Shown here piece by piece: positions 10,821 to 57,139 of a stretch of 64,000 nucleotides of DNA. The stretch spans positions 1 to 64,000 of the forward strand of contig NW_015165353.1 in assembly GCF_001447785.1 (NCBI RefSeq). Reading direction: 5' to 3'. The notes beneath the pieces were generated by a model that ran no database searches, was not told the DNA's origin, and saw only the letters and a list, made by a program, of their open reading frames with translations. The position numbers and the translations under genes were made by a program. Origin of the DNA: Gekko japonicus (taxonomy: Eukaryota). Each line of letters starts with the position of its first letter. Positions within the stretch are counted from its first letter, which is position 1.

Positions 10821-10836
10821 GCACAAGGTGGTGCTG
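10821..10836 (+). promoter_or_regulatory. CSE / CTCF-type site of the A1 promoter
   Basis: GCACAAGGTGGTGCTG, 237 bp upstream of ATG 11058. Fits the CTCF core (CCAC.AG.TGGC) and the position of clustered-Pcdh CSEs. Confidence 0.7.
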
Positions 10837-11057
10837 TTGGCCAACAAAGCAAAAATGGTCACACAGTAACTTCTCCTTGAAAAATCTACAGCCATTAGAC
10901 AAAGCAGTATCAAGGAAACAGGCAGCAGCTCTGCATTGCTAGAGAACAGTAAAAAATGTTAGGAAGTCAAGAAGAAAACCCAAGGAAAGAAAGGGAACCA
11001 GGTGCTGTACAAAGAACTCCTTTGTGTTTCACTTCTGTTTTGGGGGAAGCTGCAAGA

Positions 11058-13900
11058 ATGCTTAACAGGCAAGTCTGGTCTTTTTCTTTGTATTTCTGCC
11101 TTGCTATCGGGGTTTGTGAGTCTTTCCACTATTCAGTGCCTGAAGAAAAGAAAAGTGGATCTCTGGTTGCAAATGTGCTAAAGGATTTGAAAGTGGGTGT
11201 GAAGGAGCTGTCTGCTCGTAGGGCTCGGCTGGTTTCTGAAGGCACCAAGCAATATTTCCAGCTGGATCCTTACTCTGGGAATGTGATATTGCAGGACAGA
11301 ATAGATCGAGAGTCTCTGTGTGGTCAGAAGGATCCTTGTGTCTTATTCTCAGAGATTGTGCTGGAGAATCCATTGCAAGTGCACAGGATTGAAGTTCAGA
11401 TAGAGGACGTGAATGATAATTCCCCCCAATTCTCTAAAAAGGAATTCCTTTTTGAAATACCTGAGCAGACTCCCCTGAATACCCAGTTCCTTTTGGAGAA
11501 GGCTCAAGATCAGGACAACGGGGAAAATGCTGTTCAGAACTATACACTTAGTCCAAATGACCATTTTAGACTGGATGTACACAGTCGCAGTGATGGGATC
11601 AAATATGCAGAGTTAGTACTGGAGAAACAGCTGGACCGTGAAGAGATTGCACGGCTTTTCCTGATTCTGTCTGCTGTTGATGGAGGGACCCCAAAGAGAA
11701 CAGGCACAGCAAACATTATGGTTGAAGTTCTGGACAGCAACGATAATGTCCCTCAGTTTCATCCATCCCTTTATGAAGTGAAACTAACAGAAAACACTCC
11801 AAAAAACACACTTGTGACTAAAGTTCAAGCTACTGACCAGGATCTTGGTTCCTACGGAGACGTCACCTATTCCTTCAGCCAGGTGCCAGAAAATGTGCTC
11901 AAAGCATTCAATTTAAACCAACAGACCGGGGAACTGACTGTTGCTGGAACCGTTGATTATGAAGAGGAGAGAAGTTATGAGATCAACATCAAAGCCACGG
12001 ATGGAGGGGGGCTCTCTTCGTATTGCAAAGTCGTGGTGGAGGTTGAGGACCAGAAGAGATTGCACGGCTTTTCCTGATTCTGTCTGCTGTTGATGGAGGG
12101 ACCCCAAAGAGAACAGGCACAGCAAACATTATGGTTGAAGTTCTGGACAGCAACGATAATGTCCCTCAGTTTCATCCATCCCTTTATGAAGTGAAACTAA
12201 CAGAAAACACTCCAAAAAACACACTTGTGACTAAAGTTCAAGCTACTGACCAGGATCTTGGTTCCTACGGAGACGTCACCTATTCCTTCAGCCAGGTGCC
12301 AGAAAATGTGCTCAAAGCATTCAATTTAAACCAACAGACCGGGGAACTGACTGTTGCTGGAACCGTTGATTATGAAGAGGAGAGAAGTTATGAGATCAAC
12401 ATCAAAGCCACGGATGGAGGGGGGCTCTCTTCGTATTGCAAAGTCGTGGTGGAGGTTGAGGACCAGAATGACAATGCCCCAGAGGTGACCCTCACATCGC
12501 TCACGAGCCCCGTACCAGAAGATTCTCCCCCAGATACAGTGGTGGCCCTCTTTCGTGTCACAGATCGAGATTCGGGAGAAAATGGCAAAACTTCCTGCAC
12601 CACGGAGGCAAGCTTGCCCTTCATGATAAAAGTGTCCGTGAATAGCTATTACCAGCTGCTGACCCAGCAGTCCCTGGACAGAGAAAAAGCCTCAGAGTAC
12701 AACATCACCATCACAGCTACAGACAGGGGCTCACCCAGGCTCACTTCAACAAGAATAATTAACGTTCAGATCTCAGATGTCAATGACAATGCTCCGGTAT
12801 TTGAGAAGTCAACATATGAAATGCAGTTATGGGAAAATAACATTCCGGGACTGCTGATAGGGTTGGTCCAAGCCAGGGACCTGGACACAGAGCGGAATGC
12901 CAAAGTAATGTATTCACTTTTGCCTGGGAAGGTCAGCAATCAACCTGTGTCCTCTTATGTCTCCATCAACTCTGAAACTGGGAATCTGTATGCCATCCGA
13001 TCAGTGGACTATGAGCAGGTGAAAGATTTTCATGTGACTGTGAGAGCTCTGGACAGCGGTTCTCCTCCCCTAAGCTCCCAAGTTATGGTCAAAGTTGTTG
13101 TCATGGATGAAAATGACAATGCCCCATTCATCCTCTACCCTCTTCAGAATGGCACTTCCCCATCCAATGACCTGGTTCCCAGAGAGGCTGAGGCTGGTTA
13201 CCTGATCACCAAGGTGGTGGCAGTGGACAGAGATTCCGGTCAGAACTCGTGGCTTTCCTATGAGCTCCTGAAGGCCACGGAACCGGGTCTGTTCAGTGTT
13301 GGGGCCCAGAATGGAGAAGTGAAAACCATGAGACCAATTAATAAAAGAGACACTTTAAAACAGAAACTAATCATTGGAGTCAGAGACAATGGGCACCCTC
13401 CCCAGTCTACCTCTGCAACGCTAAGTGTTCTGCTAGTGGATGGCTTTTCTGACCCGTATATGAAAATGTTGGATATCCCAAAGGATGCAGTGGTAGAGGA
13501 GGAAGACCGTACCCTGACGATGTATCTGGTCATATGCTTGGCTACCATCTCACTCATATTTCTGATTTCCATGGTGGTGTTCGTTGCAATCAAGGTTCAA
13601 AAAAGGAGGAAGTTCATAGAGAGCTCTGCCCTGAATTTCCCAGTGGGACCGAATTTCCAGGAGAACTTTGGAGATGCTGGTGCTGGATCCCTTTCCCGGG
13701 CTTACAACTATGAGGTGTGCTTAGCTGGTGGGTCCCTGAACAGCGAGTTCAGGTTTCTCAGGCCTCTCTTTCCTGTGTTTTCTGTGGAGCCTGCACCAGA
13801 TCAAAGGGATTCAATGATTTCAGCTGGTTCCCAAGAAGTTCCCAGTCATGGAGCAGAAAGTGAACACATAAGTCAGGTGAGAGTAATTAAGTTAATATAA
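11058..13900 (+). CDS. PCDHB: Protocadherin-beta-type variable exon A1, frameshifted by a 413-bp exact internal duplication (possibly an assembly artefact)
   Basis: Signal peptide, six cadherin repeats (DRE, DxNDN, AxDGG), TM and the beta-type tail YEVCLAGGSLNSEFRFLRP. ORFs 10956-12077 and 12131-13900 overlap in content. Removing one copy gives 2430 nt (809 aa plus stop). Donor CAG|GTGAGA after 13876. Confidence 0.9.
11640..12465 (+). repeat. Exact tandem duplication, 413 bp x2 (11640-12052 / 12053-12465)
   Basis: GAAGAGATTGCACGGC...GAGGACCA repeated with period 413 and a 3-bp GAA junction microhomology. No differences seen by eye. Confidence 0.95.
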
Positions 13901-14075
13901 AATCCCTAATGGTTCAGTTCCTAAGATAATAATGTTAACAACAATCAAGCGTAACTCTTTTATACAGAAACTCCAGGTGAATCATTGAGATTTATTTCCA
14001 GTGTTTCCAAATGTATTTCTCATCATTTCTGCCTGTCTGCTTATGTACATGTTACAGAAATGTACAAAAATTAAA

Positions 14076-14795: not shown

Positions 14796-15413
14796 TTACA
14801 AAAATTATAATCTCTGTTAACAATGGTAACCGTGTTTAAAGTTCATATATACATGCAAAATTAGCATAAATATAAGCATATTATATATCAGGTAAATGTT
14901 TTGAGGCATGACTCAGACATGGGCGGAAACTGTTTTGCAAGTCAAGCATGACTTCAATAGGAGGAAGGAGAAATAAGATGAACTGGAACAGGAGGCTCCA
15001 GGCTGAACTCATCCCAGCAGAGTGAAAAGGAGAAATGAGGAAGGAGCGGCCTCACTTCTCCCCCCCCTCCTGTTTCGAGCGCTTTTAATTTGTTGTCATC
15101 CCTGGCCCTCAGTTGTAAGGAGACAAAATATAGGGCTTTAGTCTTAATTTCCCAGCAAGTGGCAGTGTGATCGGTTCCTTCGTTTGCCTTGCATAGAGTA
15201 CGACAGTAGGAGCCATTTGCTCATTGCTAATTTTAATTAATATTCTTGCATTGTATTTTTGTGTGTGGTGGTGGACATAATGTTGCATGGAGTAACTTTG
15301 CAAGTGGGTTCTGAAAGGCAGACTATATTTAGAGATGGATCCCAGTTCAAAAAGTTTGAAAGTCACTGTTTTAAAGGAAAATTTATGATTTGTATAGTTT
15401 TCTTATGGTCATA

Positions 15414-15429
15414 CCACAAGATGGCAGTA
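15414..15429 (+). promoter_or_regulatory. CSE / CTCF-type site of the B1 promoter
   Basis: CCACAAGATGGCAGTA, 229 bp upstream of ATG 15643. Conserved before all B exons. Confidence 0.75.
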
Positions 15430-15642
15430 TTGGCAAACAGATCAGATGCAGCATACATTTCAAAAAGAATCCTCGATTTTGAAGCAGGGCTAGCAGAAAC
15501 ATATCAGCAGTTAGAATCTGAAACAAGAGGAAGGGTGAGTGCTGGATGGATTTGGAAATAAAAGATTAAAAGAAAGAAAGCAATCAAAAGACCAGAACAA
15601 TTTCCTAAGAAATATAAATAATCACTGGATGATACTCAGAAC

Positions 15643-18069
15643 ATGGATGATAGCTTCAGGATCAGAAAAGGTCTGTACCTTTTGTTCTTATTCTTGGTGT
15701 CTAGAGTGGTGTGTGTCTCTATTCGCTATTCTTTGCCTGAAGAGAAGAAAAGTGGGTCTCTGGTGGCTAATGTGCTGAAGGATTTGAAACTGGGACCAGG
15801 GGAGCTCTCTGCTCGCAGAGCCCAGCTGGTTTCCAAAAGCAATAAGCAGTACTTCCAGCTGGATAGCCGTTCTGGGAATCTCTTTGTAAATGAAAAGATA
15901 GACAGAGAAGCTTTGTGTGGGAAGGTGGAGCCTTGCTTACTGTTGTCTGAAATTGTGCTCCAAAACCCCTTAACAATCTACATTATTGAGATTGAGATCA
16001 AAGATGTGAATGACAATTCACCTGAATTCTCCAAAAAGGAATTTGAATTAGCAATTCCTGAGAATGTTCCTACAAATACACGATTTCCTTTGGAATCTGC
16101 CCAAGACACAGACTTAGGTGAAAACACTATTCAGAACTACACACTCAGTGTCAATGGGAATTTCAGATTGGATGTACAAAGTAATGAGTTTGGGAGCAAA
16201 TATGTGGACCTTGTTCTGGAGAAATCACTAGACAGGGAGAAAGAAGCTCATTTGCGGCTGACTCTCACAGCTGTTGATGGAGGGGTGCCCCAGAGAACAG
16301 GCACAATTCAAATAAATATTAATATTCTGGACATCAATGACAACTTCCCGCAGTTTACACAATCTGAATATAAAGTGAAGCTAAAGGAAAACAGTCCTCG
16401 TGGTACTCTAGTGTCTAAAGTAGAAGCCAGAGATTTGGATTTTGGTTCAAATGCAGAGATCACGTACTCATTCCATCGGGTACCTGAGAATATAGAACAC
16501 TTGTTCTACTTGCAACAGAAAACTGGAGAAATCACAATTTTGGGTCCAATTGACTATGAAAAGGAAGCCAGCTATCACTTAGACATTAAAGCAACAGATG
16601 GAGGGGGCCTTTCAGGCCACTGCAAGGTCCTGGTGGAAATTGAGGATGAGAACGACAATCTACCTGAGATATCGGTCATATCCGTCACCAACCCTTTGGC
16701 AGAAGACTCTCCCCTAGATACTCTGGTCGTCCTCTTCAGTGTCACAGACCGAGACTCCGGAGACAATGGCAGGACCTTCTGCTCTGTGGAGATGAACTTG
16801 CCTTTCCTGTTAAAAAACACTGTGAATAATTATTATCAACTGGTGACCCAAAGGCCACTGGATAGAGAGAAAGTCCCTGAGTATAACATCACCATCACAG
16901 CTACTGATCGGGGCTCTCCCAAGCTGATTTCTGTTAGAATAATTAGCGTTGAGATCTCAGACATCAACGACAACTCTCCAGCGTTTGAGAAGTCCAAGTA
17001 TGAAATGCAAGTGTGGGAAAACAACATTCCTGGCCTGCTGATGGGTTTGGTCCGGGCTGCCGATCTGGACGTGGAGCAGAATGCCAAGGTGACCTATTAC
17101 CTTGTGCCTGGAAATGCCAGTGGTGCTCCTGCGGCCTCTTATGTTTCCATCAACTCTGAGACGGGGAATCTGTATGTCCTGCGATCTCTGGATTATGAGC
17201 AGATCAAGGAGTTCCAAGTGACAGTGAGGGCTTCAGATGGGGGCTCTCCTCCACTGAGCTCAGAGGTTGTTGTTCGAGTTGTGATCCTGGATGAAAACGA
17301 TAATGCGCCCTTCTTCCTCTACCCACTTCAGAACAGCACCTCCCCCTTCAACGAGCTGGTTCCCAAGTCAGCGGAGTCCGGTTACCTGGTTGCCAAGGTG
17401 GTGGCTGTGGATGGGGATTCGGGCCAGAACTCTTGGCTGTCCTATGAACTCCTGAAGGCCACAGACCCCGGCCTTTTCAGCATAGGAGCCCAGAACGGAG
17501 AAGTGAAAACCCGGAGACCACTGACGGAGCGAGATACCAACAAGCAGAGACTGATTATCCTGGTGAGAGACAACGGCCACCCTCCCCAGACCAGCACTGC
17601 AACCCTGAATGTCCTTCCGGTGGATGGCTTTTCAGATCCTTATCTGAATATTGCAAGCGTCAGTCACGAAGCCAGTGAGGAAGACGGCTCCTTGACCATG
17701 TACCTGGTGATCTGCTTGGCTGCGGTGTCCTTTGTGTTCCTGGTTTGCATCATTGTGTTTGTTGCCATCAAAGTGCACAAGAAAGAGTCTAGTTTCATCA
17801 CCGCCCTTCCTCAGTTCCCACCTGCCTTGCCTGAGATCCCAGAAACCGGTGTCGATTCTCAGAGTGGATCACTTTCCCGGACTTACCGCTATGACGTTTG
17901 CCTAACCGGTGGATCACTAAGCAGCGAGTTCAGATTCCTTAGGCCTCTCATTCCTGTTTTTTCTATGGGAGACCCAAACATTTCTGAGAATCACAGGATT
18001 TCTTCTATCTCTCAAGAGGCTCCTGAGCAAGCAGAAGGCCAAAAACAAAGAGAACAGGTATGTAAATAG
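15643..18069 (+). CDS. PCDHB: Protocadherin-beta-type variable exon B1 (intact, 808 aa if unspliced)
   Basis: Signal peptide, EC1-EC6, TM and YDVCLTGGSLSSEFRFLRP tail. Donor CAG|GTATGT after 18057. Confidence 0.95.
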   Translation: MDDSFRIRKGLYLLFLFLVSRVVCVSIRYSLPEEKKSGSLVANVLKDLKLGPGELSARRAQLVSKSNKQYFQLDSRSGNLFVNEKIDREALCGKVEPCLLLSEIVLQNPLTIYIIEIEIKDVNDNSPEFSKKEFELAIPENVPTNTRFPLESAQDTDLGENTIQNYTLSVNGNFRLDVQSNEFGSKYVDLVLEKSLDREKEAHLRLTLTAVDGGVPQRTGTIQININILDINDNFPQFTQSEYKVKLKENSPRGTLVSKVEARDLDFGSNAEITYSFHRVPENIEHLFYLQQKTGEITILGPIDYEKEASYHLDIKATDGGGLSGHCKVLVEIEDENDNLPEISVISVTNPLAEDSPLDTLVVLFSVTDRDSGDNGRTFCSVEMNLPFLLKNTVNNYYQLVTQRPLDREKVPEYNITITATDRGSPKLISVRIISVEISDINDNSPAFEKSKYEMQVWENNIPGLLMGLVRAADLDVEQNAKVTYYLVPGNASGAPAASYVSINSETGNLYVLRSLDYEQIKEFQVTVRASDGGSPPLSSEVVVRVVILDENDNAPFFLYPLQNSTSPFNELVPKSAESGYLVAKVVAVDGDSGQNSWLSYELLKATDPGLFSIGAQNGEVKTRRPLTERDTNKQRLIILVRDNGHPPQTSTATLNVLPVDGFSDPYLNIASVSHEASEEDGSLTMYLVICLAAVSFVFLVCIIVFVAIKVHKKESSFITALPQFPPALPEIPETGVDSQSGSLSRTYRYDVCLTGGSLSSEFRFLRPLIPVFSMGDPNISENHRISSISQEAPEQAEGQKQREQVCK

Positions 18070-24440: not shown

Positions 24441-24452
24441 TATAGTTCTCTG

Positions 24453-26645: not shown

Positions 26646-27466
26646 TCCAGCCTCATGCTTGCATTCTGCATTCACTGTTAGCCTTCTAGAAAGCTCTGTT
26701 TTTTAGTTGCGAAGCACAGGGGTAAGTGTCATGTGACCCAACACAGCACTCTGGGGCTTGTAGGAAAGGCTCTTAGAGAACTTACCAAGAATGGCAGAAT
26801 TCTCTACACGGATAGCTGATATATAGTATATTCCCAGGAAGATGGGGGGGGGGATATATATAAATTGCAATTGCCTGCAGAACCACATGCATGCTATGTC
26901 TATCATTTATTTTCTACAGTTTGAGAAGTAGACCTTGCAAAAAAAAAACCCCACTATCTGCATAACCTAACGTAGGTGGTGGAAATCTATGGCCTTTCTT
27001 CAGGCCTGCAAGAGAAAGAAGACCTTCTTTCATCATACTTTACACCATCATAATTTCTCCAGTGTCACGGAGATTGTGTGCACTGAAAGAAAATAAAACT
27101 CAGCTACTAAGAGCCATAAGCGTACATTTTAATGGCCCAGTAGTGGGTCACCATATGGAACACAGAAGCAGCTACCAGCAGAATTCTTGGGACCACAAAC
27201 TTCATCATGGCTAGGCACTACCATGAACTTTTGTGTTTATACAGAAGAATCTTTTTGGGTAAGCAGGATGATTGGACCAGATATTTCGCTTGTGGGAAGG
27301 CCATTACCCATTTCTTTTGAAGTGTGCGTCACTGAATTCCAAACCATCTTTAAAATTTTAGTTTATAAGAAGAGGGGTAAGTTATGAAATATTAAAAGTA
27401 GTTCAAGACATATATTTCATGAAATGCTGGTGAATTATAGTTTCTGCTTGTCATAGATTTATTCAA

Positions 27467-27482
27467 ACACAAGGTGGTGCAA
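27467..27482 (+). promoter_or_regulatory. CSE / CTCF-type site of the A2 promoter
   Basis: ACACAAGGTGGTGCAA, homologous to 10821 and 291 bp upstream of ATG 27758. Confidence 0.65.
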
Positions 27483-27757
27483 TTGGACAACACATAGCAA
27501 ACTTTCAGGGCGTATCAGGTTTCCCACATAGCTCTTGCTGTCACAAAGAAGGGATCTCAAAGAGAAATAGAAGGCAATCGTCCTTGCAGGCATAGACAGA
27601 AATTTCAGAAGGAAAAAGCCACTGTATTTATTACTGATAACAGATATAGAAAAAAGAGATTTTCATTGGGTAAAGACAACAAAGCCAGTTCCAGGAACTG
27701 CCTTCTTTACAAAGAACCATCCTGTGTGTCAGACGTACCTTCAAGGAGGGTGAGAAA

Positions 27758-31282: not shown

Positions 31283-31957
31283 CCACTGAGTATCACTGAT
31301 TTAAGCAGAATGCATACTGGCTTACCGTTTATGCAGTGGTTCTCAAATTGTGGGTTGTCTAACTGGTCAGTTGCAATGCCAGAAGGGAGGCAGAGGGGAA
31401 AGGCAAGGTGGAAGAGGCACCCGTAAAAATGGATGAAATTTCCTTGTCTTCCCATTCAGTGGGGAGTCACTCCGCCCTTTATCTTTTTCATTTTGGGGGC
31501 AGAAGTCTGCTTCGTCAACCACGGCAGTAGGAGCCACTCCACATGCTGCGTTTTTACATATACTAATAATTTGGTGTGTGTAAACGAGAACTTTGAACAC
31601 ATTGATTGGGCGGGTGTGATTGGATGCAGTTGCATTTCAAGTAGGTGTGCATTTTATATGCATAAAGTGCAAACATGGCTGAGAGATCTTTATGCAAACC
31701 ATTGCTCACGATTGCTATGTATTAATAAATCTTCGAAATAAAACGTTTTGTTCAATAGTAACTTAGATGAGAGTCTTCCATTGTGTGTACATAGGGGAGG
31801 CGGAGTAGCAGAGGATGACTTTGCAGGGGGATTCTAAAATCATAGTAAGATAGCAGTCCAGCTGCCCCCCAAAATTTGAGAATTGGTCCATGAATAAGGC
31901 AAAGGTAAAGCAGTTAATAAACAGACATGCAGCTTTCATGGTTTTCTTCTGGTGAAA

Positions 31958-31973
31958 CCACAAGATGGCAGTA
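31958..31973 (+). promoter_or_regulatory. CSE / CTCF-type site of the B2 promoter
   Basis: CCACAAGATGGCAGTA, 259 bp upstream of ATG 32217. Confidence 0.75.
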
Positions 31974-32216
31974 TTGGCAAAGAGATGAGCTGCAAATGGT
32001 ATTTCTAGCATTTTATTTCTAGCAGCTCAAGCAGAAATCTAACAGGCACTCTGAATGCAGAGGGAGGGAAGGAAGGTGCTGGACAGACAGGAAGATTCAA
32101 GAATAAAAAGCAATGGAACATAGAAGATCAAAATTAATTATCTCAAAAAGATAAAATATCTCTGGATAGTACCAGGCTGCTTCCTGAACCACAGATTCCT
32201 GACCATGTCTGGCATC

Positions 32217-39373: not shown

Positions 39374-39420
39374 TAGTCAAGCTTCCCCCCAAAGTTTGAG
39401 TTCTGGTCTTTCTAGTAGGT

Positions 39421-39436
39421 CCACAAGAGAGCAGTA
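39421..39436 (+). promoter_or_regulatory. Mutated CSE of an orphan B-type promoter
   Basis: CCACAAGAGAGCAGTA followed by TTGGCAAACAGAT, then the BovB element instead of a coding exon. Confidence 0.65.
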
Positions 39437-39459
39437 TTGGCAAACAGATCAGTTGCAAC

Positions 39460-42400
39460 TCCCCCTCATGGATCACTGCCTTGTCGTGGCGAGGGGGCTT
39501 GCGCAGTTCAATGAAGCTGTGGGCTATGCCGTGAAGGGCCACCCAAGACGGACAGGCCACAGCAGAGAACTCAGACCAAGCGTGATCCACCTGGAGAAGG
39601 AAATGGCAACCCACTCCAGTATGTTTGCCAAGAAAACCCCATGGACAGTATCAAAAGGCTAAAAGATATGACGCCGGAAGATGAGCCCCTCAGGTCGGAA
39701 GGTGTCCAATATGCTACTGAGGAAGAGCAGAGGACAAGTACAAGTAACCCCAGAAAGAGTGAAGCGGCTGGGCCAAAGCCGAAAGGACGCTCAGTTGTGG
39801 ATGTGTCTGATGGTGAAAGGAAAGTCCGATGCTGCAAAGAACAATACTGCATAGGAACCTGGAATGTAAGATCTATGAATCAAGGTAAGCTTGACGTGGT
39901 CAAAAATGAGATGGCAAGACTGAACATCGATATCCTAGGAATCAGTGAACTAAAGTGGACAGGAATGGGCGAATTTAACTCAGAAGACCATTATATCTAC
40001 TACTGTGGCCAGGAATCTCGTAGAAAAAATGGTGTGGCCTTTATAGTCAACAAGAGAGTGCAAAAGGCAGTACTGGGATACAATCTCAAAAATGACAGAA
40101 TGATTTCTGTCCGATTCCAAGGCAAACCATTCAACATCACAGTAATCCAAGTCTATGCCCCAACCACTGATGCAGAAGAGGCTGAAGTGGACCGGTTCTA
40201 TGAAGACCTACAACACCTCCTAGAACTAACACCAAAAAATGATGTCCTCATCATCATAGGGGACTGGAATGCTAAAGTAGGAAGTCAAAAGGTAACTGGA
40301 ATAACAGACAAGTTTGGCCTTGGAAAGCAAAATGAAGCAGGGCAAAGGTTAACAGAGTTTTGTCAAGAGAACACACTGGTCATAGCGAACACCCTTTTCC
40401 AACAACCTAAGAGGCGACTCTACACATGGACATCACCAGATGGGCAACACCGAAATCAGATTGACTATATAATTTGCAGTCAAAGATGGAGAAGCTCTAT
40501 CCAGTCAGTAAAAACAAGACCTGGAGCTGACTGTGGTTCAGATCATGAGCTACTCATTGCAAAATTCAGACTTAAACTGAAGAAAATTGGGAAAACCACG
40601 AGGCCATTCAGGTTTGACCTAGATCGCATCCCTGATGAATATACAGTAGAGGTGAAGAATAGATTCAAGGGTCTGGATTTGATAGATAGAGTGCCTGAAG
40701 AACTATGGACAGAGGTTCGTGACATCGTACAGGAGGCAGCAATCACCACCATACCAAAGAAAAAGAAATGCAAGAAAGCAAAATGGCTTTCTGATGAGGC
40801 TTTACAAATAGCAGAGGAAAGAAGGAAAGCGAAAGGCAAAGGCGAAAAGGAAAGATTTACCCAACTGAACGCAGATTTCCAGAGAACAGCAAGGAGAGAT
40901 AAGGAGGCCTTCCTGAATGAACAGTGCAAAGTAATAGAAGAAAACAATAGAATGGGAAGGACTAGAGATCTCTTCAAGAAAATTGGAGAAATCAAGGGAG
41001 CGTTCCATGCAAAGCTGGCCATGATAAAGGACAAAAACGGTAGGGACCTAACAGAAGCAGAAGAGATTAGGAAAAGATGGCAAGAATACACAGAAGAACT
41101 ATACAAGAAAGACCTCAATGTCCTTGACAAACACGACGGTATAATCACTGACCTTGAGCCAGACATCCTGGAATGTGAAGTTAAATGGGCCTTAGAAAGC
41201 ATTACTAACAACAAAGCTAGTGGAGGTGATGGTATTCCAGCTGAGCTATTCAAAGTCTTAGAAGATGATGCTGTTAAAGTTCTGCACTCCATTTGCCAGC
41301 AAATTTGGAAAACGCAACAGTGGCCACAGGATTGGAAAAGATCAGTATACATTCCAATCCCAAAGAAGGGCAATGCCAAGGAATGTTCAAACTATCGCAC
41401 AATTGCACTCATATCACACGCTAGCAAGGTCATGCTCAAGATCCTACAAGCTAGGCTTCAACAGTACGTGGATAGAGAACTACCAGAAGTACAAGCTGGG
41501 TTTCGAAGAGGTAGAGGAACGAGAGATCATATTGCCAACATTCGCTGGATTATGGAGAAAGCAAGAGAGTACCAGAAAAATATCTACTTCTGCTTCATTG
41601 ACTATGCTAAAGCCTTTGACTGTGTGGATCACAACAAACTATGGCAGGTCCTTAAAGAGATGGGAGTACCAGACCACCTCACATGTCTCTTGAGAAACCT
41701 GTATAAGGGCCAAGAAGCGACAGTTAGAACCGGATACGGAACAACTGATTGGTTCAGCATAGGAAAAGGAGTACGACAAGGATGTATACTGTCACCTTGC
41801 TTATTTAATATATATGCAGAGTACATCATGCGAAATGCTGGCCTGGATGAATCACAAGCGGGAATTAAGATTGCTGGGGAAAAGATCAACAACCTCAGAT
41901 ATGCAGATGATACCACTCTAATGGCTGAAAGTGAAAAGGATCTAAAGAGCCTCTTGCTCAGAGTAAAAGAGGAGAGCGCAAAAGTGGGCTTGAAGCTCAA
42001 CATCAAAAAAACTAAGATCATGGCATCCGGCCCCATCACTCCTTGGCAAATAGAAGGGGAAGCTGTGGAAGTAGTGACAGACTTCACGTTCCTGGGATCC
42101 CAGATCACCGCAGACTGTGACTGCAGCCATGAAATTAAAAGACGCCTGCTCCTTGGGAGGAAAGCGATGGCGAACCTAAACAGCATGATAAAAAGTAGAG
42201 ACATCACCCTGCCAACAAAAGTCCGCATGGTCAAAGCAATGGTATTCCCAGTAGTCATGTATGGCTGCGAGAGCTGGACTATAAGGAAGGCCGAGCGCCG
42301 AAGAATAGATTCTTTTGAACTATGGTGCTGGAGAAGACTCTTGAGAGTCCCTTGGACTGCAAGAAGAACAAATCAGTCAATCCTCAAAGAAATCAACCCT

Positions 42401-42557
42401 GACTGTTCCCTGGAAGGCCAGATAATGAAACTGAAGCTCAAATACTTTGGCCACCAAATGAGAAGGGAGCACTCACTGGAGAAGACCCTGATGCTGGGAA
42501 AGATTGAAGGTCAAAGAAGACGGGGACGGCAAAGGATGAGATGGTTAGACAGTGTCA
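39460..42557 (+). mobile_element. Near-full-length RTE-BovB LINE, truncated at its 3' end
   Basis: 5' UTR CATGGATCACTGCCTTG..., uninterrupted ORF. Homology to the other BovB copies stops at GACAGTGTCA (42557), before the normal C-terminus and tail. Confidence 0.95.
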
Positions 42558-42592
42558 AGATTCTTACAGTTTGTGTTCATGGGGGGAGGTAG
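39641..42592 (+). CDS. BovB/RTE AP-endonuclease-reverse transcriptase (983 aa; last residues read into flanking DNA)
   Basis: APE motifs IGTWNVRS, LGISE, GDWNA, QIDYI and SDH. RT motifs YRTIAL, FIDYAKAFD, GVRQGCILSP and YADD. Confidence 0.95.
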   Translation: MDSIKRLKDMTPEDEPLRSEGVQYATEEEQRTSTSNPRKSEAAGPKPKGRSVVDVSDGERKVRCCKEQYCIGTWNVRSMNQGKLDVVKNEMARLNIDILGISELKWTGMGEFNSEDHYIYYCGQESRRKNGVAFIVNKRVQKAVLGYNLKNDRMISVRFQGKPFNITVIQVYAPTTDAEEAEVDRFYEDLQHLLELTPKNDVLIIIGDWNAKVGSQKVTGITDKFGLGKQNEAGQRLTEFCQENTLVIANTLFQQPKRRLYTWTSPDGQHRNQIDYIICSQRWRSSIQSVKTRPGADCGSDHELLIAKFRLKLKKIGKTTRPFRFDLDRIPDEYTVEVKNRFKGLDLIDRVPEELWTEVRDIVQEAAITTIPKKKKCKKAKWLSDEALQIAEERRKAKGKGEKERFTQLNADFQRTARRDKEAFLNEQCKVIEENNRMGRTRDLFKKIGEIKGAFHAKLAMIKDKNGRDLTEAEEIRKRWQEYTEELYKKDLNVLDKHDGIITDLEPDILECEVKWALESITNNKASGGDGIPAELFKVLEDDAVKVLHSICQQIWKTQQWPQDWKRSVYIPIPKKGNAKECSNYRTIALISHASKVMLKILQARLQQYVDRELPEVQAGFRRGRGTRDHIANIRWIMEKAREYQKNIYFCFIDYAKAFDCVDHNKLWQVLKEMGVPDHLTCLLRNLYKGQEATVRTGYGTTDWFSIGKGVRQGCILSPCLFNIYAEYIMRNAGLDESQAGIKIAGEKINNLRYADDTTLMAESEKDLKSLLLRVKEESAKVGLKLNIKKTKIMASGPITPWQIEGEAVEVVTDFTFLGSQITADCDCSHEIKRRLLLGRKAMANLNSMIKSRDITLPTKVRMVKAMVFPVVMYGCESWTIRKAERRRIDSFELWCWRRLLRVPWTARRTNQSILKEINPDCSLEGQIMKLKLKYFGHQMRREHSLEKTLMLGKIEGQRRRGRQRMRWLDSVKILTVCVHGGR

Positions 42593-42712
42593 TAGCAGGA
42601 AAAGACTTTGCACGTGGATTCTAAAAGGCAGAGTAAGAAAGCAGTCAATCTGCTCCAAAAAGTTTGAGAACTTAAAGAGACATGCAAGTTTCATGGTTTT
42701 CTTCTAGTAAGA

Positions 42713-42728
42713 CCACAAGATGGCAGTA
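42713..42728 (+). promoter_or_regulatory. CSE / CTCF-type site of the B3 promoter
   Basis: CCACAAGATGGCAGTA, 269 bp upstream of ATG 42982. Confidence 0.75.
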
Positions 42729-42981
42729 TTAGCAAACAGATGGGCTGCAAATGGCATTTCTGGCATTTCATTTGTAGCACTAGCAAAAACCTAACAGGCA
42801 GAGACACTCTGAATGCAGAGGGAAGGGAGCTGCTGGATAGATGGGAAGACTCGAGGACAAAAAGGAATGGACACAGCAGATCAAAATTAATTATTCCAGG
42901 AAAAGAAGATATCTCTGGATAGTACCCAGCTGCTTCATGTTCTGAAAACCATAAATATCTGACCTGGGAGAGTCTGGCACC

Positions 42982-45184
42982 ATGGAGGATCATTTCAGAA
43001 TCAGAAGAGGTCTGTACCTTTTGTTCTTACTCTCTCTGTCTGGAGTGGTGTGTGTCTCTATTCACTATTGTGCTCCAGAACCCCTTAACAATCTACAGCA
43101 TTGAGATGCAGGTAGAAGATATAAATGACAACTCTCCAGCATTCTCCCAAACTGAACTTAACCTATCTATTCCTGAGAATGCTCCCACAAACACTCGATT
43201 CCCCCTGGAATCTGCCCAAGATACTGATTTGGGCAAAAACACCATCCAGAACTACACCCTCAGTCCCAATGAAAATTTTCACTTGGAAATTCAAAGTGGC
43301 AGGAGTGGAAGGAAACATTTGGAACTTGTTCTGGAGAAACCACTAGACAGGGAGAAAGCGGCTCAGTTGGGGCTGACACTCACAGCTGTTGATGGAGGGG
43401 TGCCCCAGAGAACAGGCACAGTTCAAATCAATATTAATGTTCTGGACACCAATGACAACTTCCCTGAGTTTGCACAATCTGAATACATAGTGAGTTTGAA
43501 GGAAAACAGCCCTCGAGATACTCTGGTCTTGAAAGTGGAAGCCAGAGATTTGGATTTGGGTTCAAATGCAGAGATCACATATTCATTCCATCAGGCGCCT
43601 GAGAAAATAAGCCAATTGTTCCAGTTGCATCAAACTACAGGGGAAATCACTGTTTTGGGTCCAATTGACTATGAAAAAGAAACCAGGTATTATATGAACA
43701 TCAAAGCAACAGATGGAGGGGGCTTCTCAGGCCACTGCAAGGTCCTGGTGGAAATTGAGGATGAGAATGACAATGCCCCAGAAATATCAGTCATAACCAT
43801 CACCAGCCCTTTGGCAGAAGATTCTCCCCTAGATACATTGGTTGTGCTTTTCAGTGTCACAGACCGAGACTCTAGAGACAACGGGAGGACCTCATGCTCT
43901 GTAGGGATACAGTCCCCTTTTCTTTTAAAAACAACACTGAACAATTATTATCAACTTGTGACCCAAAGTCCACTAGACAGAGAGAAAGTCTCTGAGTATA
44001 ACGTCACCATCACAGCTACTGATAAGGGCTCTCCCAAGCTCACTACAGAAAGAACCATTACAGTTTTAATTTCAGACATCAATGACAACTCTCCAGTGTT
44101 TGAGAAGTCCAAGTATGAAATGCAAGTGTGGGAAAACAACATTCCCGGCCTGCTGATGGGTTCGGTCCGTGCTGTCGATCTGGACGTGGAGCAGAATGCC
44201 AAGGTGACCTATTCTCTTGTGCCAGAAAATGCCAGTGGTGCTTCTGCAGCCTCTTATGTTTCCATCAACTCTGAGACGGGGAATCTGTACGTCCTGCGAT
44301 CTCTGGATTATGAGCAGATCAAGGAGTTCCAAGTGAGAGTGAGGGCTTCAGATGGGGGTTCTCCTCCACTGAGCTCAGAGGTTGTTGTTCGAGTTGTGAT
44401 CCTGGATGAAAACGACAATGCCCCCTTCTTCCTCTACCCACTTCAGAACAGCACCTCCCCCTTCAACGAGCTGGTTCCCAAGTCAGTGGAGGCCGGTTAC
44501 CTGGTCGCCAAGGTGGTGGCTGTAGATGGGGATTCGGGCCAGAACTCTTGGCTTTCCTATGAACTGCTGAAGGCCACAGACCCCGGCCTTTTCAGCATAG
44601 GAGCCCAGAACGGAGAAGTCAAAACCAGGAGGCCACTGACAGAGCGAGACACAAACAAGCAGAGACTGATTATCCTGGTGAGAGACAATGGCCACCCTCC
44701 CCAGACCAGCACTGCAACCCTGAATATCCTTCCGGTGGATGGCTTTTCAGATCCTTATCTGAATGTTGCAAGCGTCAGTCATGAAGCTGGTGAGGAAGAC
44801 GGCTCCTTGACCATGTACCTGGTGATCTGCTTGGCTGCGGTGTCCTTTGTGTTCCTGATTTGCATCATTGTGTTTGTTGCCATCAAAGTTCACAAGAAAG
44901 AGTCTAGTTTTATCACCGCCCTTCCTCAGTTCCCACCTGCCTTACCTGAGATCCCTGAAACTGGTGTCGATTCTCAGAGTGGATCACTTTCCCGGACCTA
45001 CCATTATGATGTTTGCCTTACTGGTGGATCCTTAAGCAGCGATTTCAGATACCTTAGGCCTCTCATTCCTGTTTTTTCTGTGGGGGACCCAAATGTCTCT
45101 GAGAATCACAGGATTTCGTCTATCTCTCAAGAGACTTCTGAGCAGGTGGAGGGCCAAAAAGAAAGAGAACAGGTATGTAAATAG
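42982..45184 (+). pseudogene. PCDHB: Protocadherin-beta-type exon B3 with a 224-bp frameshifting deletion of most of EC1
   Basis: At 43066-43070 TATT joins GTGCTCCAGAA, so the equivalent of 52310-52533 is missing (ATT microhomology). The signal-peptide frame stops at 43102-43104. EC2 to tail is still open. Donor CAG|GTATGT after 45172. Confidence 0.9.
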
Positions 45185-45263
45185 CTGGGGGGGGGGCTCC
45201 TTAATTGTCTCATGTCATTCAGAAATTTCAGCTGGGTTATGTTTTGTCAGAATTTTTAATGTT

Positions 45264-47122: not shown

Positions 47123-47828
47123 AAATAAAACATGATCTAATAAAATTTAAACCTGGCTACAATACAATTTCCATAACCTAAATAGCAAGACACAGAATTT
47201 GGCAACATGGTACGTATTCCTAGGGTTCTCATCACATAAAAGATAATCAAGCTTAGCTTTTTCAGTAAAACCAAGAATCTTATCCAATAATAGAGTCTCC
47301 TCAAAAGCTGCTTTATAATGTGGGCAGCTAAAAATGTATGCTCTATGGATTTATGTGGGACAGAAAGAGCTAAAAGTTACTTTAATGCTATGTGATGAAG
47401 AAAAAGCTTTTGACTGCATTGAATGGAGTTTGTTCAAAAATCTCAATTCAGTTCTTCATTGGTACGAATATTTGACCAAACATATAACCAGTTTTACAAC
47501 ATTTATAAAATAAAACATGATCTAATAAAATTTAAACCTGGCTACAATACAATTTCCATAACCTAAATAGCAAGACACAGAATTTGGCAACATGGTACGT
47601 ATTCCTAGGGTTCTCATCACATAAAAGATAATCAAGCTTAGCTTTTTCAGTAAACACAAGAATCTTATCCAATAATAGAGTCTCCTCAAAAGCTGCTTTA
47701 TAATGTGGGCAGCTAAAAATGTATGCTCTATGGATTTATGTGGGACAGAAAGAGCTAAAAGTTACTTTAATGCTATGTGATGAAGAAAAAGCTTTTGACT
47801 GCATTGAATGGAGTTTGTTCAAAAATCT
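47123..47828 (+). repeat. 321-bp direct repeat (47123-47443 / 47508-47828) containing an L1 RT scrap
   Basis: Period 385 bp, near-identical (one 2-base swap seen). Encodes CDEEKAFDCIEW. Confidence 0.9.
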
Positions 47829-48376: not shown

Positions 48377-48377
48377 G

Positions 48378-49640
<1,263 letters not shown>

Positions 49641-50937: not shown

Positions 50938-51952
50938 ATTCTCTCTCCCCACCTTTGGGCAGTTCTGAAGTATAAGGAGGGAAGGGAATGGCTTGCAAGT
51001 CAGACCTATGACACAGTTGTGTATGCAAGCTTTCAAGTTCTCCAGCTTTATTAACTGGGATGTTTTTAAAAAAACTGAGCTTGTGGAGAAGGCTGAGGGG
51101 TTGTTGGACCATTCTGTCCCTGACAGGCGGCCTGCAGTTCAGGGAGACTCCCTGTCATTCAGTGACAGCTGTTTCAAGATGGGGACCACTTGGCTGCCAA
51201 ATAACACCACTGGGCAGTAGCCTTGCCCGCTTTCCTGAAATATATGGTGGGTGCCACATTGGGAAATGGTATTCAGAAGTTCAAGTGGCATGTCAAAGAG
51301 TGACGCATGGCTCAGTACCACTGATTTAAACAAAATGCAGATTGGCTTACTGTTTATGCAGTGGCTTTTAAACTGTGGGTTGGGGCTATATCGTCTGCCA
51401 GAAGGGAGGCGGAGGGAAAAGGTGAACTAGAAGAGGAGACTGTAAAAGTGGGTGGAATTTCCTGTCTTTCCTCGGCTTCCCACTCAGTGGGGATGCACTC
51501 TGCCCTGTGTTCCTTTGTCTTTCCAGCAGAAGTTTGTTTTGTCAACCAAGGCAGTAGGAGCCACTTCATACGTTGCGTTTTAGATGTACTAATAGTTTGG
51601 TGTGTGTAAATAAGAACATTGAACACATTGATCAAGTGGGTGTGATTGGCTGCAGTTCTGTTCCAGTTAGTGTGTATTTTATATGCATAAAGTGAAAAAT
51701 GGCTGAGAGATCTTTATGCAAAGCATTGCTCACTATTGCTATTTATTAATAAACCTTAAAAATAAAACATTAAGTTGTTCAATAGTAACTTAGATTAGAG
51801 TCTTCCATTTTGTGTGCATACGGGAGGGGGAGTAGCCGGGAACGACTTTGCACGTGGATTCTAAAAGGCAAAGTAAGATAACAGTCAATTTGCTCCCAAA
51901 AAGTTGAGAACTTAAATAGACATACAATTTTCATGGTTTTCTTCTGGTAGGA

Positions 51953-51968
51953 CCACAAGATGGCAGTA
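51953..51968 (+). promoter_or_regulatory. CSE / CTCF-type site of the B4 promoter
   Basis: CCACAAGATGGCAGTA, 269 bp upstream of ATG 52222. Confidence 0.75.
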
Positions 51969-52221
51969 TTAGCAAACAGATGAGTTGCAAATGGCATTTC
52001 AGGCATTTCATTTGTAGAACTAGCAGAAACCTAACAGGCAGAGACATTGTGAATGCAGAGGGAAGGAAGGTGCTGGATACACAGAAAGATTCAAAAGCGA
52101 AAAGCAATGGACACAGCAGATCAAAATTAATCATTCCAGAAGGATAAAATATCTCTGGATAGTACCCAGCTTCTTCATGTTCTGAAAACCATAAATTTCT
52201 GACCTGGGAGAGTCTGGCACC

Positions 52222-54678
52222 ATGGACGATATCTTCAGGATGAGAAAAGGTCTGTACCTTTTGTTCTTACTCTCTCTGTCTGGAGTGGTGTGTGTCTCTA
52301 TTCGCTATTCTTTGCCTGAAGAGAAGAAAAGTGGGTCTCTGGTGGCTAATGTGCTGAAGGATTTGAAGCTGGGACCAGGGGAGCTCTCTGCTCGCAGAGC
52401 CCAGCTAGTTTCCAAAAGCCATAAGCAATATTTCCAGCTGGATACCCATTCTGGGAATCTGTTTGTAAATGAAAAGATAGACAGAGAAGCTTTGTGTGGT
52501 GAGATGGATTCTTGCTTACTTTTGTCTGAAATTGTGCTCCAGAACCCCTTAACAATCTACAGCATTGAGATGCAGATAGAAGATATAAATGACAACTCTC
52601 CAGCATTCTCTCAAACTGAACTTGACCTGTCTATTCCTGAGAATGCTCCCACAAATAGTCGATTCCCACTGGAACCAGCCCAAGATAGAGACTTGGGCAA
52701 AAACAGTATTCAGAACTACACCCTAAGTCCCAATGAGAATTTTCAGCTGGAAATACAAAGTGGCAGGGATGGAAATAAAAATCTGGACCTTGTTCTGGAA
52801 AAACCACTAGACAGGGAGAAGGAGGCTCATTTGTTGCTGACTCTCACAGCAGTTGATGGAGGGTCGCCCCAGAGAACGGGCACAGTTCAAATAAATATTA
52901 AGGTTCTGGACATTAATGACAACTTCCCTCAGTTTGCACAATCTGAATATATAGTGAGTTTAAAGGAAAATAGCCCTCCAGATACTCTGGTCTTGAAAGT
53001 GGAAGCAAGAGATTTAGATTTTGGTTCAAATGCAGAGGTCACTTACTCATTCCATCAGGTGCCTGAGAGAATAAGCAACTTGTTCCAGTTGCATCAAATG
53101 ACTGGGGAAATCACCGTTTTAGGTCCAATTGACTATGAAAAAGAAACCAAATATTATATGAAGATCAAGGCAACGGACGGAGGTGGTCATACAGGCCATT
53201 GTAAGGTCCTGGTGGAAATCGAGGATGAGAATGACAATGTACCTGAGATCTCAGTCATATCTGTCACCAGCCCTTTGGCAGAAGACTCTCCTTTAGATAC
53301 CATGGTCATCCTCTTAAGTGTCACAGACCGAGACTCTGGAGAAAATGGTAAGACTTCCTGCTCCATGGAGATGAACTTGCCCTTTCTATTAAAAAACACT
53401 GTGAATAATTATTATCAACTGGTGACCCAAACGCCGCTGGACAGAGAGAAAGTCCCTGAGTATAACATCACCATCACAGCGACTGATCAAGGTTTTCCCA
53501 GGCTCACTACAAAGAGAACAATTACAGTTTTAATCTCAGATGTCAATGACAACTCTCCAGCATTTGAGAAGTACAAGTATGAAATGCAAGTGTGGGAAAA
53601 CAACATTCCAGGCCTGCTGATGGGTTCAGTCCGTGCTGTCGATCTGGACGTGGAGCAGAATGCCAAGGTGACCTACTCTCTTGTGCCTGGAAATGCCAGT
53701 GGTGCTCCTGCAGCCTCTTTTGTTTCCATCAACTCTGAGACGGGGAATCTCTTTGTCCTGCGGTCTCTGGATTATGAGCAGATCAAGGAATTCCAAGTGA
53801 TGGTGAGGGCTTCAGATGGGGGCTCTCCTCCACTGAGCTCAGAGGTTGTTGTTCGAGTTGTGATCCTGGATGAAAACGATAATGCCCCCTTCTTCCTCTA
53901 CCCACTTCAGAACAGCACCTCCCCCTACAACGAGCTGGTTCCCAAGATGGTGGAGGCCGGTTACCTGGTCGCCAAGGTGGTGGCTGTGGATGGGGATTCA
54001 GGCCAGAACTCTTGGCTTTCCTATGAACTGCTGAAGGCTACAGATCCCGGCCTTTTCAGCATAGGAGTCCAGAATGGAGAAGTCAAAACCAAAAGACCAC
54101 TGACGGAGCGAGATGCAAACAAGCAGAGACTGATTATCCTGGTGAGAGACAACGGCCACCCTCCCCAGTCCAGCACTGCAACCCTGAATGTACTTCCGGT
54201 GGATGGCTTTTCCGATCCTTATCTGAATATTGCAAGTGTCAGTCATGAAGTCGTTGAAGAAGATGGCTCCTTGACCATGTACCTGGTGATCTGCTTGGCT
54301 GCGGTGTCCTTTGTGTTCCTGATTTGCATCATTGTGTTTGTTGCCATTAAAATGTACAAGAAAGACTCTAGTTTTATCACCGCCCTTCCTCAGTTCCCAC
54401 CTGCCTTACCTGAGATCCCAGAAACTGGTGTCGATTCTCAGAGTGGATCACTTTCCCGGACTTACCATTATGATGTTTGCCTAACCGGTGGATCACTAAG
54501 CAGCGATTTCAGATTCCTTAGGCCTCTCATTCCTGTTTTCTCTATGGGGGACCCAAATATCTCTGAGAATCACAGGATTTCTTCTGTCTCTCAAGAGACT
54601 CATCAGCAGGCAGAAGGCCAAGAACAAAGAGAACAGGTGAGTAAGTTGTTGTGTTTTCTTTATTGCCCCATGTTCTAG
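52222..54678 (+). CDS. PCDHB: Protocadherin-beta-type variable exon B4 (intact, 818 aa if unspliced)
   Basis: Complete signal peptide, EC1-EC6, TM and tail. Donor CAG|GTGAGT after 54636. Confidence 0.95.
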   Translation: MDDIFRMRKGLYLLFLLSLSGVVCVSIRYSLPEEKKSGSLVANVLKDLKLGPGELSARRAQLVSKSHKQYFQLDTHSGNLFVNEKIDREALCGEMDSCLLLSEIVLQNPLTIYSIEMQIEDINDNSPAFSQTELDLSIPENAPTNSRFPLEPAQDRDLGKNSIQNYTLSPNENFQLEIQSGRDGNKNLDLVLEKPLDREKEAHLLLTLTAVDGGSPQRTGTVQINIKVLDINDNFPQFAQSEYIVSLKENSPPDTLVLKVEARDLDFGSNAEVTYSFHQVPERISNLFQLHQMTGEITVLGPIDYEKETKYYMKIKATDGGGHTGHCKVLVEIEDENDNVPEISVISVTSPLAEDSPLDTMVILLSVTDRDSGENGKTSCSMEMNLPFLLKNTVNNYYQLVTQTPLDREKVPEYNITITATDQGFPRLTTKRTITVLISDVNDNSPAFEKYKYEMQVWENNIPGLLMGSVRAVDLDVEQNAKVTYSLVPGNASGAPAASFVSINSETGNLFVLRSLDYEQIKEFQVMVRASDGGSPPLSSEVVVRVVILDENDNAPFFLYPLQNSTSPYNELVPKMVEAGYLVAKVVAVDGDSGQNSWLSYELLKATDPGLFSIGVQNGEVKTKRPLTERDANKQRLIILVRDNGHPPQSSTATLNVLPVDGFSDPYLNIASVSHEVVEEDGSLTMYLVICLAAVSFVFLICIIVFVAIKMYKKDSSFITALPQFPPALPEIPETGVDSQSGSLSRTYHYDVCLTGGSLSSDFRFLRPLIPVFSMGDPNISENHRISSVSQETHQQAEGQEQREQVSKLLCFLYCPMF

Positions 54679-55387: not shown

Positions 55388-55569
55388 ATCCTCCTATTTT
55401 GGGGGTCCTCTGCCCCTCTTTCCATTGGACCTCTTCTTCCACAGATCATTTTCCCAAGCCTGTTGCTGAATGCTGGAATTCTTTCTTCAACCCTCCTGCC
55501 TCCCGGTCATTAGCTTTCTGACTTTCTGAAGCTTATTACCCTCAAGGCTGATTCCTCACTCCATCATGA

Positions 55570-55655
55570 GGCACACTTGGGTCTCGAACTGCTGAACTAC
55601 TGACCTTCCACATCCTGCAGTTCAGCGTCTTAACCACTTGAGCCACCGCAGCTCC
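55570..55655 (-). mobile_element. Sauria SINE 5' head fragment
   Basis: CTTAACCACTTGAGCCACCGCAGCTCC is the reverse complement of the SINE head. Confidence 0.75.
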
Positions 55656-56485
55656 GATATAGGGTTAGGCACGCATAAAACCACCAAAATCATACAGTCA
55701 CACAAACACCACTAGGACATTAGTAGCAGACATTGCAGTCCTCCAGTCCTCTCAAAAAAATCCAGTAACTAACAGCATCTAGTAACTAACAACATCAATA
55801 ATTGCTGAAAAATTTGGGATCTTTCACCTGTGTCCATGGAACTTGGTAGTGATGATTCGTTGGGTGATGAGGGTTTTATTCAGATGGAAAACAAACAAGT
55901 TATAGTGTAACTGTGTTTTCCCATTGAAAACAGCTGGAAATGAAAACTGAAAAACAAACAAATGAGGATCTTTTAAAGAAGCAAAACAAAATGGAAGCAA
56001 AAAAATCTCCAGAAGTCCAGAACCAAAAGAAACCTGTTCCTTTAGGGGTAAGGTTGGCCTCCCTCTTTGCCTGGCTGACCCATCACCAAGACCCCATCTC
56101 CTCTGAAGTGACTTTCAATTTGTTGTTGTTGGTTTTAATGGTTTTAAAATGTTATTTTATCATATATGTTTTCATCTGTTAGCAGCCTTGGTGGACCAGC
56201 GAGAGTGGAAAGGTGGGGTACAAATTTTCTAAAATCAATCCATCAATCGATAAATAGAAGATAGTCGTACAGTGAGGGGGACCCTCCCTCTGCTCCCTGC
56301 TGCCGCCCAGTGAAGCAGTGGGAGAAATTGTGGGGCCAACACTGGCATTGCCATGATGCCAGGCAATGCATTGCCTCACCCCCCAAAGGTCCCTGGCTGG
56401 CAACCCAACCCACTGTGCTCGGTAGCCTACATTTGGGGGTGGGGCTGCTGAGTCAATCAGCTGAGACATATGTTGCATTTTTAAA

Positions 56486-56708
56486 AAGGTAAAGGTTCCC
56501 TTGCTCGAAAGCCAGTCGAATCCGACTCTAGGGTTGCGGTGCTCATCTCCGTTTCAAAGCCGAACAGCCAGCGCTGTCCGAAGACGTTTCCGTGGTCATG
56601 TGGCCAGCATGGCTAAACACCAAGGCGCACGGAACGCTGTGACCTTCCCACCGAAGTGGTACCTATTTATCTACTTGCAATTTCTTGCTTTCAAACTGCT
56701 AGGTTGGC
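56486..56708 (-). mobile_element. 5'-truncated Sauria SINE
   Basis: AAAGGTAAAGGTTCCCTTGCTCG..., flanked by a GCATTTTTA duplication. Confidence 0.85.
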
Positions 56709-57123
56709 ATTTTTAGATGTACTAATAGTCTGGTGTGTGTAAACAAGAGCATTGAACACATTGATCAAGAGGGTGTGATTGGCTGCAGTTGCATTCAAGT
56801 AGGTGTGTATTCTATATGCATAAAGTGCAAAATGGCTGAGAGATCTTTATGCACATCATTTATCACAATTGCTATGCATTTGTTGTTGTTCAGTCGCACA
56901 GTCGAGTCCGACTCTTTGCGACCCCATAAACATTAACTTGTTCAATAATAACTTAGATGAGAATCTTATATTTGTGCGCATAGGGGAGGGGGAGTAGCGG
57001 GGAATGACTTTGCAGACAGATTCTAAAAGGCAGAGTAAGATAGCAGTCAAGCTTCCCCCCAAAAAAGTTTGAGATCTGGTCCTATACTAGACATGCAACT
57101 TCCATGGTTTTCTCCTAATAGGA

Positions 57124-57139
57124 CCACAAGAGGGCAGTA
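57124..57139 (+). promoter_or_regulatory. CSE / CTCF-type site of the B5 promoter
   Basis: CCACAAGAGGGCAGTA, 264 bp upstream of ATG 57388. Confidence 0.75.

Follow-up and report, generated by a model that had tools for sequence, protein, structure and literature searches.

In mammals, one forward CTCF-type motif, known as the conserved sequence element (CSE) or promoter CTCF-binding site, lies ~200-290 bp before each variable exon of the clustered protocadherin (Pcdh) genes (Wu 2001 and Guo 2012, as cited in PMC7811963 and PMC7087399). The element includes a CGCT box whose CpG, once methylated, is described as blocking CTCF (PMC7811963), and the C of the box is placed at motif position 12 (bioRxiv 2022.03.09.483674). 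According to Jia 2020 (PMC7087399), every alternate promoter site of the α, β, and γ clusters contains a CpG, and HS5-1b, a CpG-free CTCF site, is described there as constitutively occupied and cell-invariant. A CGCT box is cited for β by Hirano 2012 (PMC3431597), and mammalian Pcdh promoters are stated to be flanked by CpG islands (PMC10463633). Here we describe a 64,000-nucleotide stretch of the Gekko japonicus genome (NW_015165353.1 positions 1-64,000, assembly GCF_001447785.1; hereafter the window) that holds part of a Pcdh-β cluster. The eight CSEs of this array are all forward and free of CpG, and its variable exons end in splice donors that may lead to a tail shared among lizard Pcdh-β proteins.

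Further layers of Pcdh choice are described in the mouse, namely H3K9me3/HUSH, SMCHD1, WIZ, and cohesin (PMC10857554; bioRxiv 2022.03.09.483674), and the mechanism of promoter choice in the β and γ clusters is called unknown even in mammals (bioRxiv 360206). Outside mammals, all 14 Xenopus α CSEs as well as the zebrafish α CSEs are reported to be without the CGCT box (PMC4978886). No prior report of lizard CSE sequences was found in the open-access literature. The Pcdh-β genes are stated to be without a constant exon in the anole paper (PMC2764143), in a review (PMC7811963), and in a mouse study (PMC3431597).

CTCF-type elements of the gecko array

The coding content identifies the window as part of the G. 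japonicus Pcdh-β cluster, a tandem array of variable exons. The exon at 27758..30157 matches XP_015266078.1 (G. japonicus protocadherin beta-16-like) with 100% identity across 99% of its length. Single exons of ~2.4 kb that encode six cadherin repeats, a transmembrane segment, and a variable cytoplasmic segment follow each other in tandem, as is the rule for clustered Pcdh genes, and Pfam finds PF08266, five PF00028 domains, and PF16492 in a variable exon. Identity to DAA06588.1, named 'protocadherin beta 11' in the anole, is 68-71% for the B exons and 62% for the A exon. In a protein similarity search the labelled lizard Pcdh matches were all named β, as were the named mammalian matches. Against solved constructs of extracellular cadherin repeats (EC) 1-4 of equal length, β8 and β6 scored 418 and 416 bits, above γ (382-400) and α4 (372). 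The β class was assigned by similarity and protein names rather than by a tree. As described for Pcdh-β of the anole, the coelacanth, and mammals (PMC2764143, PMC3431597, PMC7811963), the gecko genes combine six cadherin repeats, a transmembrane segment, and a β-type cytoplasmic segment, and they share with them lineage-specific duplication and pseudogenes.

The original prediction placed CSEs of an A type at 10821 and 27467 and of a B type at 15414, 31958, 39421, 42713, 51953, and 57124. All eight were found at these positions on the + strand, and neither pattern matches the - strand of the window. Seven of them had been said to lie 229-291 bp 5' of a Pcdh ATG, and the measured distances agree (237, 229, 291, 259, 269, 269, and 264 bp). 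The value for site 10821 refers to the ATG at 11058, an upstream in-frame ATG lying at 135 bp, and that for site 31958 to the ATG at 32217, with an upstream in-frame ATG at 247 bp. The sites are, as had been proposed, CSE/CTCF-type elements of clustered Pcdh promoters.

For the motif scores, both strands were scanned with an approximate CTCF count matrix, with 20 Markov simulations as the background. Of 28 matches above 8 bits, the highest (16.9-19.8 bits) are the five gene-linked B sites. Five matches exceed 15 bits, with 0.8 expected, and 17 exceed 11 bits, with 4.35 expected. Judged by this matrix, the B-type sites are strong CTCF motifs and the A-type sites are weak ones. No exonic CTCF site of equal strength was found in the window, as for mammalian β/γ. 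The A sites are supported despite their low scores because the two A promoters, otherwise unalignable, share a conservation island that sits on the CSE: a 40-column block, 87% alike over 31 bp, is their sole strong alignment. In the orphan site 39421, and in no other, the GG core carries a G-to-A change; this is also the site that lost its gene, which we count in favor of the mechanism proposed below.

Several observations weigh against the proposed mechanism. The A sites (12.5 and 11.9 bits) and the orphan site (12.2 bits) score within the background, and 3/7 complete exons carry a frameshift in the assembled sequence. Moreover, the sites derive from two promoter types, and the B promoters are 71-88% alike across their aligned parts, so that the eight CpG-free sites count as about two independent events.

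The conservation of the CSE extends beyond the CTCF core, with offsets 16, 17, 19, 22, 23, 25, and 27 (within +14 to +27) invariant in 8/8 sites; this stretch is possibly a downstream module or the site of a second factor. An additional forward CTCF-like motif without CpG lies at 15149-15167 (12.4 bits), which places it ~260 bp 5' of the CSE at 15414. Related CTCF-like motifs of 9-14 bits occur at 1122, 7639, 9054, 35497, and 36799, where a dispersed repeat has copies that contain or adjoin them.

CpG content and methylation gating

The claim that the sites lack a CpG holds for each of them, with 0/8 having one within the surrounding 46 bp. A CGCT box with a methylatable CpG is found in 0/8 sites; the core reads C-A-G-T in the B type and T-G-C-T or T-G-C-A in the A type. 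At 0.0084 CpG per bp, ~68% of 46-bp stretches are expected to be CpG-free in any case, and therefore only the core position is informative. There the C is followed by A (B type) or replaced by T (A type), for which reason CpG methylation within these motifs, as they read in the assembly, cannot gate the gecko sites.

The promoters had also been called CpG-poor. This is true in number, with 33 CpG in 3915 bp and an observed-to-expected ratio (o/e) of 0.22 (with errors of 3 and 6 bp in two of the ATG positions behind it), but the ratio is only slightly below that of intergenic DNA (0.29) and of the window (0.30), a further point against the proposed mechanism. Each promoter holds 2-8 CpGs, with 0-3 between the CSE and the ATG, and each exon 37-51. 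No promoter is covered by a CpG-island-like interval. The CpG-richest stretch of the window is 45251-46000 (o/e up to 1.23), which lies directly 3' of the exon ending at 45172 and at no promoter.

The gecko array thus resembles the mammalian one in the placement and orientation of a single CTCF-type motif per exon and differs from it in having neither a CpG at motif position 12 nor a CpG island at the promoter. The original prediction would have been refuted by mammalian β CSEs equally devoid of CpG; by the statements of Jia 2020 and Hirano 2012, rather than by the sequences, the mammalian sites do contain it. The CSEs of Xenopus tropicalis and zebrafish Pcdh-α, reported to lie ~200 bp upstream of the ATG (PMC4978886), are like those of the gecko in the absence of the box, although they belong to the α cluster and the gecko sites to β, and the comparison is with the published text and not with site sequences. 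Because these α CSEs are reported without a CGCT box, its lack is not peculiar to the gecko lineage. The proposal that promoter choice here may not be gated by methylation of the CTCF site is partly supported, in that the sequence excludes gating through a motif CpG; it was overstated in view of the frog and zebrafish α sites, of the eight sites being about two events, and of β and γ choice being called unknown in mammals themselves. The contrast with mammals is real as far as published statements go, but it is not new in kind.

Splice donors and a shared tail of lizard Pcdh-β

The β genes are described as single exons, yet every complete gecko exon ends in a donor and lizard gene models share a tail of 39 amino acids (aa). 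The donors were found at 7/7 complete exon ends, the first base after the exon being 13877, 18058, 30158, 34832, 45173, 54637, and 59803. They match the splice consensus at 8 or 9 of 9 positions in 7/7 exons, compared with 30/3375 GT sites of the window (these seven included), and in the four intact exons they are in phase 0. In lizard models named 'isoform X', different variable exons are joined to one C-terminal tail of ~39 aa. A tail profile search, in which the best 8000 word-sharing candidates were scored, gave 111 tail-bearing proteins, of which 110 are from 18 named lizard species and one is a 74-aa open frame; of 188 proteins collected, 111 end in the tail. The species include five geckos, four lacertids, a cordylid, a skink, an anguid, an amphisbaenian, a tegu, and iguanians, among them both Anolis.

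Within one species, a single tail is common to up to 14 distinct exon ends whose variable parts are ~59-100% identical, and A- and B-like exons alike join it at the residue that corresponds to the donors of the window. In five pairs of a gecko and another lizard, the tail is identical at 25-27/39 residues, the preceding residues at 11-13/30, and the ectodomain at 472-513/670. The copies differ by frame-keeping indels and have a common stop. In the 74-aa open frame, the residues ahead of the tail are of the kind that a pyrimidine tract followed by CAG would encode, which would resemble a splice acceptor. An anole exon annotated unspliced as β11 (DAA06588.1; Jiang 2009) has a tail-bearing counterpart among the RefSeq isoforms, with 99.3% identity across 806 aa. 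Lizard β genes thus probably have a constant exon of their own, contrary to the published statement, and it is very likely that the exons of G. japonicus itself are spliced to this tail. Like the α and γ constant regions, it would join many variable exons to one common C-terminal sequence; unlike them, it is only 39 aa long and resembles EC6. No report of a β constant exon was found in the open-access literature. No snake, turtle, crocodile, bird, or mammal is among the 111 matches, which is weak evidence for absence outside lizards because only the best 8000 word-sharing candidates were scored.

A number of points stand against a shared constant exon. The evidence for the tail consists of automatic gene models, and many models from tail-bearing species end unspliced. 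Jiang 2009 (PMC2764143) left the anole exon in question unspliced and reports constant exons for δ, α, and γ only, the queries having been mammalian constant exons. No G. japonicus protein is among the 111 tail-bearing matches, and in the 64-kb window a search for the tail returned only EC6 self-matches.

Origin of the tail

The tail profile finds its best match within the variable exons themselves, ending at the W-L-x-Y motif of EC6 in 157/161 exon bodies (median 9 bits). Compared with 1.84 billion representatives, it gave six matches: the tail itself, three EC6 starts from lungfish and fish protocadherin-like models, and two unrelated repeats. The latter, P0185 and P0186, were rejected as tail homologues. 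Homology to an α constant region was likewise rejected, the tail matching EC6 instead. Neither Pfam nor the tail profile searches gave a match to the α or γ constant regions, with which no direct comparison was made, and Pfam added no cytoplasmic-tail match in a tail-bearing anole protein at E up to 0.1. It is therefore quite probable, on the resemblance to EC6, that the tail derives from a decayed variable-exon fragment covering the start of this repeat. It is likely that β exons kept their donors and that lizards recruited such a fragment as a terminal exon. This derivation is weakened by the single EC6 matches reaching only 9-19 bits, by library-wide E-values that sum over repeated exons, and by 2/5 of the non-self profile matches being unrelated repeats.

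Proposed mechanism and alternatives

In the mechanism that we propose, the CpG-free forward CSEs are likely to act as methylation-insensitive CTCF anchors, isoform choice would likely come from enhancer competition via cohesin loops together with heterochromatin rather than from methylation acting as a switch within the motif, and whichever exon is chosen is likely spliced to a shared 39-aa constant exon outside the window. Taken as a whole, this explanation has a modest balance of probability in its favor, and its parts differ in strength. The B-type sites very likely bind CTCF, if their motif scores are a guide, and would do so constantly; weaker binding by the A-type sites is rather likely. 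That choice is independent of motif methylation seems highly plausible from the core sequences, and that it is still stochastic is somewhat probable.

The two main alternatives concern how an exon would be chosen. Methylation could act indirectly, either through regional CpGs in the exon and 5' of it or through the core C being methylated outside a CpG context (CAG in the B sites), closing the chromatin and excluding CTCF as in mammals, the motif CpG having been lost by deamination as dispensable. We consider this unlikely. In its favor, the exons retain 37-51 CpGs each and the promoters 2-8, mammalian α expression is said to track first-exon methylation with CSE methylation mixed whether the state is active or inactive (as cited in PMC3333863), and non-CpG methylation is described at CAC in nervous tissue and at CAG in stem cells (PMC7736785). 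On the other hand, just 0-3 CpGs lie between the CSE and the ATG and no CpG-island-like stretch lies over the promoters. Non-CpG methylation is also sparse and is not known to be copied by maintenance methylation. Choice might instead be non-stochastic in lizard β, with constant CTCF occupancy, broad or enhancer-distance expression, and diversity left to α and γ. CpG-free sites are indeed described as cell-invariant (PMC7087399), mouse α choice is reported to be distance-driven without cohesin-driven demethylation (bioRxiv 2022.03.09.483674), and ZFP661, a diversifier of Pcdh use, is reported as absent from birds and reptiles (PMC11343191). Yet the array retains the tandem promoter-exon design and the rapid exon turnover of stochastic clusters, and mouse β genes are described as differing in expression among neurons (PMC3431597), which makes this reading improbable.

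The tail, for its part, could be an annotation artefact in which predictors joined β exons to a decayed fragment, lizard β being single-exon as in the mouse. Its resemblance to a piece of a variable exon, the unspliced ends of many models from the same species, and the report that mouse β transcripts are without splicing to the α and γ constant exons (PMC3431597) would all fit. Against an artefact stand the recurrence of one tail across 18 named lizard species, where indels preserve the frame and the stop is common to all, and its conservation, which roughly equals that of the ectodomain and exceeds that of the flanking residues. The acceptor-like residues before it in the 74-aa frame (if these are read correctly) and the intact donors in 7/7 exons point the same way, and we regard an artefact as very improbable.

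Layout of the array

The features are collected in Table 1. Four of the seven complete exons are intact, one is intact apart from one copy of a duplication with a 413-bp period, and two are frameshifted by 4-bp and ~224-bp deletions. In the exon at 11058..13876 the duplication is exact (11640-12055 = 12053-12468), the frame is open if one copy is omitted, and an assembly artefact is the likely cause. The exon at 32217..34831 is a pseudogene or an assembly error. In all, three tandem duplications, exact or nearly so and 228-416 bp in size, lie at 11640-12468, 25018-25473, and 47123-47828 and are likely assembly artefacts. Decayed relics of Pcdh exons lie at 340-596, 1796-1900, and 48378-49600, with no CSE found at any of them.

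Table 1. Features of the window in order of position; bit scores are from the approximate CTCF matrix
Feature	Position	Strand	Remarks
A-type CSE of β exon 1	10818..10848	+	12.5 bits; T replacing C of CGCT
A-type Pcdh-β variable exon ending at GT donor	11058..13876	+	frame broken by tandem duplication
B-type CSE	15411..15441	+	17.1 bits
B-type Pcdh-β variable exon, intact	15643..18057	+	805 codons to phase-0 donor
A-type CSE	27464..27494	+	11.9 bits
A-type Pcdh-β variable exon, intact	27758..30157	+	800 codons to phase-0 donor
B-type CSE	31955..31985	+	16.9 bits
B-type β exon, donor intact	32217..34831	+	4-bp deletion near 33137 (frameshift); N gap 34061-34513
Orphan B-type CSE, exon missing	39418..39458	+	12.2 bits; promoter interrupted by LINE
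LINE, presumably RTE/BovB-type	39459..42560	+	983-codon endonuclease and reverse transcriptase frame; 3' end missing
B-type CSE	42710..42740	+	18.7 bits
B-type β exon, donor intact	42982..45172	+	~224-bp frameshifting deletion in EC1
A-type exon relic, 5'-truncated, decayed	48378..49600	+	neither CSE nor donor found
B-type CSE	51950..51980	+	18.9 bits
B-type Pcdh-β variable exon, intact	52222..54636	+	phase-0 donor
B-type CSE	57121..57151	+	19.8 bits
B-type Pcdh-β variable exon, intact	57388..59802	+	phase-0 donor

The site at 39421 has no exon, and a long interspersed nuclear element (LINE) starts 38 bp 3' of it, so that an orphan Pcdh CSE, and therefore a neuronal promoter element, stands directly upstream of a LINE. 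The frame of the LINE is uninterrupted over 983 codons and holds an apurinic endonuclease and a reverse transcriptase in a single open reading frame; the family is presumably RTE/BovB. A further copy at 8088-8475 has a 3' end that is lacking here, and the element runs directly against the next promoter, which suggests that a deletion or a misassembly removed the exon of the orphan site.

When metagenomes were scanned for promoter-bearing Pcdh loci of vertebrates, 0/166 candidates were confirmed; a second scan gave 16/420 loci at 24-49% identity, which were set aside as distant cadherins.

Implications for Pcdh choice

In the mammalian model, the choice of a Pcdh promoter is linked to demethylating a single CpG within the CTCF motif, and a natural array without this CpG tests the need for it. 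If choice in gecko β is still random and stable, the methyl switch would be a lock added in some lineages and not the core mechanism. We put forward tentatively, and at somewhat less than even chance, that the lizard β barcode differs from that of mammals at both ends, with CTCF sites that CpG methylation cannot switch and a β-specific constant exon derived from the fragment of a defunct variable exon. The A-type T is one C-to-T transition away from the CGCT box, as the deamination of a methylated CpG would yield. The two site types (weak T-G-C and strong C-A-G) may be a hard-wired mimic of the methylated state. At the other end, a β-specific constant exon would give all β isoforms a common cytoplasmic tail that mammals lack. 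A shared tail would contradict the general description of β genes as free of a constant exon and bears on the origin of the β cluster, which is described as an open question (PMC7811963). If true, the tail would exemplify a constant exon that arose from the relic of a variable exon.

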